Shown here: piece after piece, positions 3,452 to 8,295 of the stretch
How the letters are laid out: each line of letters starts with the position of its first letter
Numbering within the stretch: position 1 is the stretch's first letter
Source: an uncultured Candidatus Rokubacteria bacterium
GTDB lineage: Bacteria; Methylomirabilota; Methylomirabilia; Rokubacteriales; CSP1-6
Direction of reading: 5' to 3'
Length of the DNA stretch: 64,000 nucleotides
NCBI GenBank assembly: GCA_963747235.1
Contig: CAVVEU010000040.1
Location: forward strand, 224,001 to 288,000
Translations under genes and position numbers: made by a program
The notes under the pieces: model-generated
The model's database searches: none
The model's input: the letters and a program-made list of their open reading frames with translations, nothing else
What the model was told of the DNA's origin: nothing

Positions 3452-4605
3452 CTATCTCCTAGGGCTGCCCGCCCAGTCGGTCCTAGGCGCGCAGGAGGTG
3501 ACCCCGAGCTCGGCGACGACTTCGCGGATGGCCTGCAGGGCGCCCGCGCATCTCGGTCTCCCCGAGCGCGCCGATGCAGCCGACACGGAAGCTGTCGGCC
3601 ACCGTGAGCTTGCCGGGGTAGATCACGTAGCCGCGCCGGGCCAGCCGGTCGTAGAAGGTCTCGAAGTGGAACTTCGGATCGGCGGGCATGCGGACCGTGA
3701 CGATGATCGGCGCCTGCAGCCGGTCCGGCAGCAGCGTCTCGAAGCCCATGCCGCGCAGGCCCTCCACCAGCAGCGCGCAGTTGCGGCGGTAGCGCGCGCC
3801 CCGGCCGGCCACCCCGCCCTCGGCCGTGTGCTGCTCCAGCGCGCGATCGAGCGCCGCGAGGACGTGGGTGGGCGGCGTGAAGCGCCACTGCCCGTTCTTC
3901 TCCATCGCGACCCACTGGTCGTGCAGGTCGAGGCTCAGCGACGGCGCCTGGCCGCGCGCCTCCTCCAGCGCCTCGCGCCGGATGATCGCGAAGCCCACGC
4001 CCGGAACGCCTTCGAGGCACTTGTTGGCGGAGGCCACCAGGGCGTCGAAGGGCACGCGCCGGGCGTCGAGCGGGATCGCGCCGAAGGCGCTCATCGCGTC
4101 GATCAGCAGGCGGCGCCGGTGCCGCGCCGTCACCGCCGCGATCTCCTCGACCGGGTTCAGCACGCCCGAGGTGGTCTCGCAGTGCACCACCACCACGTGC
4201 GTCACGGCGGGATCGCGCGCCAGCGCGGCGTCGAGCACCGCCGGGTCGGCCGGCTGATCCTCCGCCGTCTCCTGGACCACACAGGCCCGACGGTAGTACT
4301 CGCACATGCGGACCATGCGCCGTCCGTAGGCCCCGTTGACCAGCACCAGGAGCTTGCCCGCCGGCGGCACCAGCGTGCCGATCATGGCCTCGACAACGAA
4401 TGTGCCGCTGCCCTGCAGCGGGACACACACGTGGCTGCCGTCGCCCGTGCACCAGCTCGGTCAAACGCCGGCGCACCCGCGCGTTCATCGCGATGAACTC
4501 GCCGTCGCGCGAGCCCCAGTCGCGCAGCATCGCTTCCTTGGTGGCGCGCGTGGTGGTGAGCGGGCCCGGGGTCAGCAGGAACGGCTCGCGCGGCGTGGCG
4601 TCCAT
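3452..4605 (-). CDS. phnW: 2-aminoethylphosphonate--pyruvate transaminase, frameshifted
   Basis: [68 protein letters not shown] are all PhnW motifs. 3' end inferred across a frameshift. Confidence 0.92.
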
Positions 4606-4622
4606 GGCTTGGTCCTTTCGCC

Positions 4623-7053
4623 TCAGCTCTTCACGCGCAGGGAGCGGGGATCGTAGGGCGCGGCCAGGCTCGCCCGCGCCGGGATCCGGTCGCCCCCGAC
4701 GTCCAGCTCGAAGCGGCCGCCCGTGACGTAGGCTTCGTCCACCCCGCCCGGCTCCCGCACGTAGCCCATCGCCACCGCGCGGCCAAGAGTGTGGCCGAAG
4801 GCCGCGGAGGTCACCGTCCCGACCACGCGCCCGTCGCGCAGGATCGGCTCGTCGCCCCACGGGAGCGCCGCCGCGTCGTCGAGCACGAAGGTCAGCAGTC
4901 GCTTGGTCAGGATCCGCTCGCGCTGCTCGAGCAGCGCCTCCCGGCCCAGGAACGGCTTGTCGAGCCGCACCGCGAAGCCGAGCCCCGCTTCCCACGGCGT
5001 GTCGTCGATGGTGACTTCCCGGCCCCACGCCCGGTACGCCTTCTCCATGCGGAGCGAGTCGAGCGCGTAGTAGCCGGCGTCGCGCAGGCCCAGGTCGCGG
5101 CCCGCCTGCGCCAGCTCATCGTACACGAGGCCGGCCTGCTCGACCGGCACGTAGAGCTCCCAGCCGAGCTCGCCGACATAGGTCACGCGCGAGGCGCGCG
5201 CGGTCGCCTGGCCGATGGCGATCTCGCGAGAGGTCAGGAAGGGGAACGCGTCCGCGCCGAGATCGGCGTCGCTCACGCGCGCGAGCAGCTCGCGCGAGCG
5301 CGGACCCATCAGGCCGAGCACCGCGGAGGCGCCGGTCACGTCGGTGATCGTGGCGCGCGCCCCCGCGGGCAGGTGGCGCCGGATCCAGTCGCAGATCGCG
5401 CGTGCCCTGGGCGGACCCGGTCACGATGAGGTAGGCGTCGCCCGCGAGCCGCGTGACGGTCAGGTCGCTCTCGAAGCCGCCGCGCTCGTTCAGCATCGCG
5501 GTGTAGACCACCCGGCCGGGCGGCACCGCCACGTCGTTGGCGCAGAGGCGCTGCAGCACCGCCTCCGCGTCCGCGCCCTCGAGCCGGAGCTTGGCGAACG
5601 AGGTCTGGTCGAAGACGGCCACCGCCTCGCGCGCCGCCCGGTGCTCGGCGGCCGCATACGGGAACCAGTTCTGGCGACCGAAGGAGTACACCGCCTCCGG
5701 CGCGACACCCTCGGGCGCGAACCAGTTGGCGCGCTCCCAGCCCATCTTGGCCCCGAAGCAGGCGCGGCGCTCGCGCAGCCGCTCGTGGAGCGGCGAGCGG
5801 CGCAGCCCGCGCCCGCTCGTGAGCTCGCGGTTCGGGAACGCGATGTTGTAGTGCACGCCCACGATCTCGCTGACCCGCTCGCGCAGGAAGCGCCGGTTGC
5901 CGTGCAGCGGCGCGAAGCGCCGGATGTCGGCCGCCGAGAGATCCATCGGCGCGCTGGCCCTCGACGATCCACTCCGCGAGCGCCTTCCCCGCCCCACCCG
6001 CGGCGGCGATGCCGCCCGAGCAGAAGCCCGCGCCGACGTAGTAACGCCGCACCTCGGGCGCCTCGCCCAGGATGAAGTAGTTGTCGGGGGTGAAGGACTC
6101 GGGCCCGTTCAGGAACGTGCGCACCTCCGCGGTCTCGAGCGCGGGCAGCCGCACGAGCGCGTTGCGCATCAGGATGTCGAACTTGTCCCAGTCTTCCTTG
6201 AGCGTCCCGAACGAGAAGCCTTCCGGGATGCCGTCCGCGCCCCAGGGCTTGGCCCACGGATCGAAGCCGCCCATGAGGAGGCCGCCCACTTCCTCCTTCA
6301 CGTAGATGTGGCCGTCGGGATCGCGCAGCACCGGCAGGTCAGAGGCCACGCCCTGGATGGGCTGGGTGACGATGTACATGTGCTCGCAGGCGTGCAGCGG
6401 GATCGTCACGCCGCTCATGCGCCCGAGCTCGCGCGCCCACATGCCCGCGCAGTTGACCAGGATCTCGGTCGCGATGGACCCCGCCGAGGTCTCGACCCCG
6501 GTGACCGCGCCGTTCGCCACGTTGACGCCGGTGACCCTGACGCCCTCCATCAGCCGCGCCCCGCCCGCGCGGGCCCCGCGCGCCAGCGCCTGCGTGATGT
6601 CGGCCGGGTTGGCCTTGCCGTCGCCCGGGATCCACACCGCGCCGACCAGATCGTCGGTGCGCATCAGCGGGTAGCGGGCCGCCGCCTCGTCCAGGCCGAT
6701 CACGTGGGCCTCGACGCCGTAGGCGTGGCCATCGCGGCATTGCGCTTGAGCTGGATCATGCGCTCCGCGGTCCGGGCGACGCTGACGCTCCCGCAGCGCT
6801 TCCAGCCGGTGGCCTGGCCGGTCTCGGCCTCGAGGCGGCTGTAGAGATCCGCGCTGTAGCGGATCAGCCGGGTGAGATTGCTGGAGGATCGGAGCTGGCC
6901 GATCAGGCCCGCCGCGTGCCACGTGGTTCCGCCGGAGAGGCTTCCCTGCTCGAGCAGCACCACGTCGCGCCACCCGAGCTGCGTCAGGTGATAGGCGACG
7001 CTGGCGCCGACGATGCCGCCGCCTACGATGACGACGCGGGCGTGATCTGGCAA
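4623..7053 (-). CDS. GcvT-family FAD-dependent oxidoreductase (dimethylglycine/sarcosine dehydrogenase-like), frameshifted
   Basis: [11 protein letters not shown] motif, [47 protein letters not shown], folate-binding C-terminus. About 810 aa over four ORF fragments. Confidence 0.9.
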
Positions 7054-7057
7054 GGAC

Positions 7058-8295
7058 CTACGAGACTTGGTTCAGGGCGAGGTCGAAGATGTCGAAGTTG
7101 CGGAGGCGGCGGTCGCCTGGGCACGCCCCTGGTCGGACGGTTCAGGAGCAGGGGCACGACCTGCTCGCTGATGCCACCGTGGGAGCGGAGCGGGGCGTCG
7201 AGGCCCGAGAGATCGTGGCGGGCCAGGCTCGTGCCGAGCACCACGTGGCGCTCGGACACCGCGACCAGGTCGCCCACGCGGTCGGGCGGCAGCTCGAAGC
7301 GGCGGCAGGCCGCGGCCCGGTCGAGCACGACCTCCATCCCGGCCAGCCCGGCGAGGCGCCGGCGAAGATCCTCCACGATCGCGCCCGTCCGGCAGGTAGA
7401 CGGTCGCGAAGGAGCCGAGCGCGCCGTGGTGCACGACGTAGGGATCGGTGATGGGCAGGATCACCCGCGCGCGGCCGGCGCCGACCCACCGATCGAGATG
7501 GTCCTGGAGGTAGATGACCCGCGGCCGGCCCGCGGCGTCGGTCTTGGCGTTCATGCCGTGGTCGGCGGTGATGGCGAGCGTGGCGCCGAGGCCGTCCAGC
7601 TTCGCGTAGTAGCCGTCCATCATGCCGTAGAACTCGTTGGCGTCCGCCGAGCCGGGCGGGTGCTTGTGCTGCACGTAGTCGGTGGTGGAGAGGTACATGA
7701 TGTCCGGGCGCACCGACTCCATCAGCTTCACGCCCGCCGCGAACACGAACTCGGAGAGATCGGCGCTGTACACCGAGGGCAGCGGCAGGCCCACCAGCTC
7801 GAGCCCGTCCGCCACGCCGTGCTCGGCCTCCGTGGTCTCGTCGGCCTTCTCGGCCGAGAAGCAGACGCCGCGCATCTCGTGGCCCAGCAGCCGCCGCAGC
7901 TTGTCCTTCGCGGTCACCACCGCGAGCCGCGCGCCTTCGCGGGCGAACGCGGCCAGGATCGTCCCGCAGCGCAGGTAGCGGGGGTCGTTCATCATGACCT
8001 CCGCGTTGGCGTCGCGATCGAAGAAGTAGTTGCCGCAGATGCCGTGCGCCGAGGGCGGCACGCCGGTCACGATGGAGAGATTGTTGGGATTCGTGAAGCT
8101 CGGCACCACGCAGTCGGCCAGGCGATCGGTCCCGCCCGGCAGCGCCGCGGCCAGGTACGGCATCGCACCCGCCGCGATGGCGCGCCGGATGTAGTCCGGC
8201 TCGCTGCCGTCCACGCACACCACGACCAGGGGGCGGTCCGGCCAGGCGTAGCGCCGGCCGTTCACCGTGATGGGGGCTCCACCGGGAGTCGTCAT
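7058..8295 (-). CDS. phnA: Phosphonoacetate hydrolase, frameshifted
   Basis: [86 protein letters not shown]. Confidence 0.93.

Follow-up and report, generated by a model that had tools for sequence, protein, structure and literature searches.

In the Sinorhizobium-type PhnW-PhnY-PhnA pathway of 2-aminoethylphosphonate (AEP) catabolism, PhnY makes phosphonoacetate, the substrate of PhnA, from phosphonoacetaldehyde (PAA). N-methylated AEPs are natural phosphonates that lie beyond the core PhnW pathway, and the sole described solution for them, the PbfB, PbfC, and PbfD flavoproteins (PbfB/C/D), releases methylamine. According to the main text of the study of these enzymes (Zangelmi et al. 2023, PMC10590968), transaminases require a primary amine; PbfC and PbfD oxidize N-methyl-AEP on the ethyl side, yielding PAA and methylamine, and formaldehyde, although sought, was not detected. 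The gene considered here encodes a larger flavoprotein, of the dimethylglycine dehydrogenase (DMGDH) and dimethylglycine oxidase (DMGO) family, and lies between phnA and phnW in a 64,000-nucleotide stretch of an uncultured “Candidatus Rokubacteria” genome (contig CAVVEU010000040.1, positions 224,001 to 288,000; hereafter, the window). Its product is a candidate tetrahydrofolate (THF)-dependent N-demethylase of methylated AEP.

The flavoprotein and PbfB/C/D have in common the PF01266 flavin domain and the recurrence as accessory genes in phnWX and phnWYA clusters. PbfB/C/D widen the AEP pathway to N-methylated AEP, and the same role is proposed here for the flavoprotein. However, PbfB/C/D are described only as PF01266 proteins, with no mention of GcvT or folate in the main text of PMC10590968, whereas the flavoprotein also carries the FAO_M, GCV_T, and GCV_T_C domains; the Pbf enzymes are thus set apart by their description, which includes no folate module. 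The regiochemistry is also predicted to be the opposite one, with the flavoprotein cutting the methyl-side bond and yielding AEP. Since PbfC and PbfD release PAA and methylamine, such a demethylating route would form a different, complementary branch of the pathway.

Likened by description, the closest functional analogy to the flavoprotein would be MabO from Arthrobacter nicotinovorans, the demethylating oxidase of gamma-N-methylaminobutyrate. MabO belongs to the same enzyme family, acts on a carboxylate substrate that comes from nicotine catabolism, and converts an N-methyl omega-amino acid into a primary amine, which is then degraded by the downstream pathway.

The window has a G+C content of 72% and contains many spurious open frames. 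Accordingly, all three minus-strand frames were read between positions 3300 and 8500, and the in-frame pieces were scanned against profile families. Three genes are found there head to tail, all on the minus strand, as follows.

7058..8295, minus strand: phnA, phosphonoacetate hydrolase; ATG at 8295, TAG at 7060-7058; two single-base frameshifts, near 7387 and 7122
4623..7053, minus strand: DMGDH/DMGO-type flavoprotein; TTG at 7053-7051, TGA at 4625-4623; single-base frameshifts near 6726, 5955, and 5392
4606..4622, minus strand: spacer between the flavoprotein stop codon and the phnW ATG; 17 nt, GGCGAAAGGACCAAGCC, read directly
3452..4605, minus strand: phnW, 2-aminoethylphosphonate-pyruvate transaminase; ATG at 4605-4603, stop codon at 3454-3452; frameshifts near 4446 and 3542

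The gap between the phnA TAG and the TTG start codon of the flavoprotein gene (GTG in the congeners) is 4 nt, and the AAAGGA motif within the 17-nt spacer is a likely ribosome-binding site. The first-pass annotation, made from the sequence of the window, had placed a full-length DMGDH-like gene 4 bp after phnA and about 17 bp before phnW; the coordinates and spacers match exactly. Two pieces of phnA, 7384-8295 (304 aa) and 7125-7382, scored 472.9 and 95.3 bits, respectively, on TIGR02335 (cut-off 407.55), and the intact PhnA of a congener, with 602.8 bits, passes this cut-off. The phnW piece 3543-4433 scored 459.4 bits on NF010006 (cut-off 296) and 414.2 bits on TIGR02326 (cut-off 400.8), and the intact PhnW of a congener, with 543.5 and 483.3 bits, passes both. 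By the NCBIfam cut-offs, these are bona fide counterparts of the PhnW and PhnA of the Sinorhizobium-type pathway. The four in-frame pieces of the flavoprotein matched DAO (94.3 and 147.1 bits), FAO_M (68 bits), GCV_T (114.4 and 141.6 bits), and GCV_T_C (76.2 bits).

In further analyses, the frameshifted copy was represented by an intact orthologue, P0001 (811 aa), whose locus is 92% identical in DNA. P0001 matched rat and human DMGDH (4pab, 4p9s, and 5l46) with 526.5 (rat 4pab), 525.7, and 517.6 bits and Arthrobacter DMGO (1pj5) with 418 bits, in each case over almost the full length. The order DAO, FAO_M, GCV_T, GCV_T_C is seen in the pieces from the window, in the 811-aa orthologue, and in the homologues (the family size is ∼800 to 860 residues). 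The GTTWHAAG motif of P0001 aligns with GSTWHAAG in DMGDH and GSTSHAPG in DMGO, so that the flavinylation His is kept; this is His48 of DMGO, in the motif S/T-W/S-H-A-A/P-G, which we take to be the site of covalent 8-alpha flavinylation. The equivalents of DMGO His225 and Tyr259, presumably the catalytic residues, are kept as well (motifs EHMY and HIYVKE), and GGFESDLTV in P0001 aligns with GGVRSDITV in DMGO, preserving the equivalent of Asp552, presumably a folate-site residue. Judged by its sequence, the flavoprotein belongs to the DMGDH/DMGO family, and the earlier description of a full-length FAD (flavin adenine dinucleotide) enzyme with a GcvT folate domain holds for domains and residues alike. 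The whole P0001 protein hits no NCBIfam model at cut-off, and current annotation rules therefore give it no specific name. The genome that contains the window encodes a single DAO-GcvT fusion, its other DAO proteins being single-domain ones, along with one ordinary GcvT.

The flavoprotein resembles DMGDH and DMGO in its four-domain layout, flavinylation His, catalytic His and Tyr, and folate-site Asp, and the chemistry expected of it, in which the N-methyl group is oxidized and its carbon is passed to THF, is alike. It differs from them in its genomic context, which is AEP catabolism (phnA, phnW, phnY, phnX, pbfA, and phnS) and not betaine catabolism, and in its presumed substrate, which has a phosphonate in place of the carboxylate and one carbon more. 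On this combination of family and context, we give about an even chance to the proposal that the flavoprotein is a THF-dependent FAD N-demethylase that converts N-methyl-AEP or N,N-dimethyl-AEP into AEP for PhnW. The flavin domain would form an iminium by oxidizing an N-methyl C-H bond in N-methyl-AEP and, probably, in N,N-dimethyl-AEP as well. Through the GcvT domain, the one-carbon unit would end up on THF as 5,10-methylene-THF, and the primary amine AEP would be set free. PhnW, which requires a primary amine, would then convert AEP into PAA, a putative aldehyde dehydrogenase would turn the latter into phosphonoacetate, and PhnA would split this into acetate and phosphate. What the enzyme acts on, what it yields, which electron acceptor it uses, and how the route runs from PhnW to PhnA are all inferred here. 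The conserved folate module fits the proposed role, as does a separate single-domain DAO that coexists with the flavoprotein in Mesorhizobium album (see below).

Within the genus, the phnA-flavoprotein-phnW arrangement is contiguous on one contig in 16 of the 20 congeners, one of which (G005) has a partial phnW, with ∼765 bp seemingly missing. In the remaining four, respectively, the genes are spread over two contig ends, a phnA fragment sits at a contig edge, nothing was found (a 63%-complete genome), and phnA is followed by oppD; this last genome (G020, L111) has lost the flavoprotein gene and phnW except for 210 bp from across the junction of the two. The same genome encodes, elsewhere, a 63%-identical DMGDH-like paralogue that has no phn neighbors. 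In eight intact rows, the gap between the flavoprotein gene and phnW is 9 to 37 bp, and that to phnA is 8 to 221 bp. Eight genomes of the sister family (L016 to L023) show the order phnW, PhnA-like gene, 811-aa DMGDH-like gene, and Nudix gene, with PhnW and PhnA-like tblastn matches in all six loci that have a full-length DMGDH-like gene. Among these, family scans covered locus L016 (6532-11864), where phnW reached 395 bits on TIGR03301 (cut-off 360.8); the PhnA-like gene is one of the alkaline phosphatase superfamily, and its 172.8 bits on TIGR02335 lie under the cut-off. The flavoprotein of the sister family is 43 to 45% identical to P0001 and forms its own long branch in the tree; the cluster looks like a second, divergent version of the trio. 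Two genes for luciferase-like monooxygenases and a RidA gene are found near it.

A scan for homologues, limited to one genome per species, was used to look beyond the order. Among the best 79 homologue loci (46 to 64% identity), 16 encode PhnW (15 loci) and/or PhnA (12 loci) within 10 kb, at 46 to 68% identity in tblastn. These 16 loci come from Alpha-, Beta-, and Gammaproteobacteria and from Verrucomicrobiota, and the only one without PhnW ends at a contig edge. Family scans of nine of the loci from other phyla revealed clear-cut clusters for AEP catabolism, with the following arrangements, among others.

L073, Mesorhizobium album: LysR gene; divergently from it, Na/Pi-PhoU, phnW, phnA, phnY, and the flavoprotein gene, in a same-strand run from phnW to the flavoprotein gene
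L073, after the flavoprotein gene: single-domain DAO of TIGR03364, pbfA, PF02826 dehydrogenase, phnS, and the rest of an ATP-binding cassette (ABC) transporter
L037, Steroidobacteraceae metagenome-assembled genome (MAG): GntR gene, phnA, phnY (863.4 bits), and the flavoprotein gene, on the same strand with overlapping stop and start codons
L104, uncultured bacterium: phnX (316.1 bits, cut-off 220), LysR gene, then phnW and the flavoprotein gene
L095, Roseobacter: flavoprotein gene, then phnS2 (505.6 bits, cut-off 392.75)
L040, Pandoraea terrae: gene for a PhnD-type binding protein; divergently from it, the genes for the flavoprotein, a DUF4743 protein, and a formyltransferase-domain protein; phnW 7 kb away

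In L073, phnY scored 813.7 bits (cut-off 635.65), pbfA 667.2 bits (cut-off 525), and phnS 485 bits (cut-off 310); PF02826 is the family given for PbfF in the published work. Loci L046 and L057 are divergent pairs. PhnW directly adjoins the flavoprotein (9 to 162 bp) in five groups, the window's genus, L046, L057, L099, and L104. Two loci first scored as unlinked, L055 (Shinella) and L062 (a Rhizobiaceae MAG), encode PbfA homologues of 79 to 87% identity and PbfF-like ones of 75 to 77%, and L062 also encodes a PhnX-like protein of the haloacid dehalogenase (HAD) type. Cultured carriers of the homologues include Mesorhizobium album, Ensifer sp., Pandoraea terrae, and Thalassobium sp. In Reyranella (L032, 8812-9981), an iron-containing alcohol dehydrogenase gene is found directly upstream of the flavoprotein gene, with a 63%-identical copy in L047; its family, PF00465, is the one to which the published 2-hydroxyethylphosphonate dehydrogenase PhpC belongs.

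A lack of such linkage in other genomes had been named beforehand as grounds for refuting the proposal, but the survey found the flavoprotein gene linked to phnW, phnA, phnY, phnX, pbfA, and AEP transporter genes in several phyla. The linkage to AEP-catabolic genes is therefore recurrent, with differing gene orders. This bears on the simplest alternative, an ordinary dimethylglycine or sarcosine dehydrogenase of glycine betaine catabolism that stands near phn genes by chance. The closest solved relatives are indeed DMGDH and DMGO, and many members of the clade have no phn neighbors. However, chance would not be expected to produce recurrent linkage in differing gene orders and several phyla: a rough inferred expectation, which is not a computed control, is less than 1 of 79 loci for a given gene to fall within 20 kb in a genome of ∼4 Mb. 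In addition, a clade of second paralogues (33 to 36% identity) has no linked member among its 7 rows, and no other betaine-catabolic gene turned up in the annotated clusters, all of which makes a betaine enzyme quite improbable here.

The same clusters bear on whether the flavoprotein works like PbfB/C/D, taking N-methyl-AEP or AEP directly to PAA by oxidation of the C-N bond on the ethyl side, with its GcvT module idle or otherwise used. This would agree with the homologous DAO domain and with the characterized FAD enzymes of AEP clusters, all of which work in that way as far as the main text of their description goes. Against it, homologues across phyla keep a complete GcvT module with its folate-site Asp, whereas an idle domain of ∼400 residues would be lost. 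PhnW, which would be partly redundant in that case, is kept in 15 of the 16 linked loci, and the L073 operon has a separate single-domain DAO of the TIGR03364 type. That PhnW is present in these 15 loci speaks for production of AEP more than of PAA: according to the main text of PMC10590968, PbfD-type oxidases occur also with phnX alone. A PbfB/C/D-like reaction accordingly appears improbable for the flavoprotein. The TmpA/TmpB route, which leads from trimethyl-AEP via glycine betaine to dimethylglycine, was considered as well and rejected: when the annotated portions of nine clusters were scanned against Pfam, no HD-domain or PhyH-type oxygenase family was seen.

Several observations weigh against the assignment of the flavoprotein as a demethylase of methylated AEP. 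First, PbfC and PbfD already process N-methyl-AEP by other chemistry, and PbfD1 also acts on dimethyl-AEP, as described in the main text of PMC10590968.

Second, the linkage is patchy. A FastTree tree was built from 95 full-length rows. On this tree, the phn-linkage label requires 14 changes, compared to a mean of 25.5 for shuffled labels, and none of the 500 shuffles gave a count as low, although related rows share labels and the shuffles therefore overstate the significance of this clustering; the differing gene orders (same-strand adjacent, divergent, and transporter-separated) are a stronger argument for linkage than the shuffles. The window's genus falls into a supported clade of 36 rows, of which 18 are linked, 12 are unlinked, and 6 have flanks too short to judge; the sister clade of 31 rows has 4 linked ones. 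Thus, 12 of the 30 assessable rows in the 36-row clade have no PhnW or PhnA in the fetched flanks, including all 5 assessable rows from Actinomycetota and both rows from Paraburkholderia, and one genus supplies 8 of the 18 linked rows. Because linkage must have been gained or lost 14 times or more on the tree, substrates may differ among members of the family. Alignment columns that separate phn-linked from unlinked rows were also searched for. The top ones included 226 and 250 (beside the catalytic His and Tyr), K147, and R94; these were rejected as evidence, and kept as leads only, because they mostly follow the phylogeny and the sister-family clade lacks them.

Two of the linked loci show where the partner pathway becomes ambiguous. 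In L057, the flavoprotein gene is located between the phnA-phnW pair and genes for the AptA omega-aminotransferase (618.4 bits, cut-off 500) and methylmalonate-semialdehyde dehydrogenase (602.5 bits, cut-off 448.5), at 12881-15708. L046 holds a 91%-identical copy of the latter dehydrogenase along with a weak (30%) match to PbfA, an enzyme of the class III aminotransferase fold. Some relatives of the flavoprotein may therefore demethylate substrates of the N-methyl-beta-alanine type; by analogy, a demethylase beside a transaminase and a semialdehyde dehydrogenase would be the very pattern that the proposed role predicts.

These loci are part of the case for the same THF-dependent N-demethylation acting on another N-methylated substrate that feeds into the phosphonate pathway or goes along with it. 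Candidates would be N-methylated 1-hydroxy-2-aminoethylphosphonate or N-methyl-2-aminoethyl acids, for instance N-methyl-beta-alanine or N-methyltaurine, with AEP derivatives a side activity at most. AptA and methylmalonate-semialdehyde dehydrogenase, which adjoin the flavoprotein in L057, are beta-alanine catabolic enzymes, and the dehydrogenase recurs in L046, as mentioned above. PbfA and the PbfF-like protein, which act on hydroxy-AEP, are encoded beside the flavoprotein in L073 and have homologues, both of them, in L055 and L062; the patchy phn linkage on the tree points in the same direction. Nevertheless, phnA and phnW are the sole conserved enzymatic neighbors in the window's genus, where there is no pbfA, and PhnW adjoins the flavoprotein at 9 to 162 bp in the five separate groups. 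A different preferred substrate is thus, in our view, unlikely for the enzyme from the window.

Third, the pathway downstream of the proposed demethylase is incomplete as known, given that no PhnY was found at cut-off between PhnW and PhnA. In the genome that contains the window (88% complete and frameshifted), the best score on the PhnY model TIGR03250 was 210.6 bits, compared to the cut-off of 635.65. None of the 41 genomes of the order (this one and 40 relatives) has a PhnY over the cut-off, the best score being 405.9 bits, and the congeners with intact genes likewise have none above it. PhnX, too, was searched for in the genome of the window, with a best score of 49.4 bits, under its cut-off of 220. 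In this respect, the order differs from the proteobacteria, whose flavoprotein loci include PhnY (813.7 and 863.4 bits in L073 and L037, respectively). The missing step could be provided by an unrelated aldehyde dehydrogenase, by a wider substrate range of PhnA, or by a different route. Since two versions of the trio occur without PhnY, the flavoprotein itself was considered as a replacement for this enzyme. This idea was set aside: PhnY and the flavoprotein occur side by side in the proteobacterial clusters, and aldehyde oxidation in the DMGDH/DMGO family has no chemical precedent known to us. An order that keeps phnW and phnA together without PhnY poses a second, separate question. The demethylase reading of the first-pass annotation is borne out in part, with respect to the family, the residues, and the phn linkage, but the linkage is not universal and a recognizable PhnY is missing. 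A more specific proposal, to which we would give somewhat less than an even chance, is that the flavoprotein represents an undescribed, cross-phylum, folate-linked class of “phosphonate breakdown factor” that would turn N-methyl-AEP and N,N-dimethyl-AEP into AEP and save the methyl carbons as methylene-THF; in the window's soil-type lineage, it would feed a PhnW-PhnA route that has no canonical PhnY and would need a further step for the oxidation of PAA.

Fourth, the flavoprotein copy in the window is frameshifted. The seven single-base indels listed above are unique to the window in comparison with four congeners and split phnA into three frames, the flavoprotein gene into four, and phnW into three; the first-pass annotation had hinted at this by referring to a “repaired gene,” and all three genes turned out to be affected. 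Four of the seven congener loci checked (L002, L003, L006, and L008) have all three genes as single, long open frames, and in G013, another low-contig congener assembly, the operon is broken, too. In order to survey frame changes nearby, 43 congener genes from three syntenic loci were placed on the contig of the window, with two of them finding no match. The neighboring coding sequence shows 32 frame changes relative to the congener over ∼38 kb, or 0.84 per kb; the genes concerned include those for MMPL, thiolase, CoA-transferase, and ABC transporter proteins. The indel density in the operon (seven in 4.8 kb, ∼1.4 per kb) is somewhat above that value but of the same order. Because the breaks run genome-wide and four congener loci are intact, the breaks are taken as assembly indels, and the seven in the operon are, judging from these comparisons, most likely errors of the assembly and not operon-specific decay.

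The somewhat higher density is what speaks for genuine decay of the operon in the window's organism, which would leave three pseudogenes with no function. This appears highly improbable: the MMPL, thiolase, CoA-transferase, and ABC transporter genes nearby are broken at a similar rate, G013 shares the broken state while L002, L003, L006, and L008 are intact, and the gene pieces keep full per-residue profile scores. Frame changes run through positions 1-28000 of the window and through the upstream part of the contig, and gene calls there need a frameshift-tolerant reading. In public sequencing data, 14 DNA runs (labelled soil or sediment, except for one that bears no label) hold 0.35 to 0.51 of the sampled words, from which no inference on habitat or on the indels is drawn, and 6 RNA runs hold 0.06 to 0.13 of them, from which none on expression is drawn.

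Full-text literature searches, which left subscription journals outside, turned up no publication in which a GcvT- or DMGDH-type enzyme is connected with phosphonates. Term searches of the main texts (as distinct from the supplementary cluster tables) of three papers from the Parma group, PMC10590968, Ruffolo 2025 (PMC12366243), and a 2026 paper in Protein Science (PMC13576164), likewise gave no mention of GcvT, of folate, or of aminomethyltransferase in connection with phosphonates. The first-pass annotation had not recognized this branch as a characterized one, and the searches likewise gave no description of such an enzyme. By family, the flavoprotein is placed with DMGDH and DMGO; in the proposed role, it would be a novel accessory enzyme for AEP catabolism, and its regiochemistry would be novel as well. 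If this role is true, a folate-dependent demethylase would represent a second, chemically different solution to the use of N-methylated AEP, one that saves one-carbon units and delivers plain AEP. It would also provide a function for one clade of the many unassigned DMGDH-like paralogues in bacteria, and phosphonate clusters from soil and marine genomes could then be annotated better.

In the window's genus, the genes around the operon follow, on one strand, the order GNAT, GT4, phnA, flavoprotein, phnW, Zn-peptidase, oppD, oppF, SBP_bac_5, and two permeases. The flanking genes in the window are as follows.

8292..9543, minus strand: GT4 glycosyltransferase, upstream of phnA; one frameshift; Pfam assignment made on the congener copy
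2540..3448, minus strand: Zn-metallopeptidase (PF04228), downstream of phnW; without a counterpart at this position in some congeners
499..2504, minus strand: ABC ATPases of the oppD and oppF type; next to them, just beyond the window, the genes for a binding protein (SBP_bac_5) and two permeases

No regulator and no known AEP transporter are encoded adjacent to the operon in this genus. The Opp/Dpp-type ABC system that follows phnW is a possible importer of the phosphonate substrate. The GT4 glycosyltransferase probably stands outside the phosphonate pathway. Its TGA overlaps the ATG of phnA (ATGA, 8292-8295), which suggests translational coupling of functionally unrelated genes. Farther along the window, positions 12000-15000 show a strong positive AT skew (0.14 to 0.30) that coincides with the minus-strand gene of an MMPL membrane protein and is probably an effect of codon composition.

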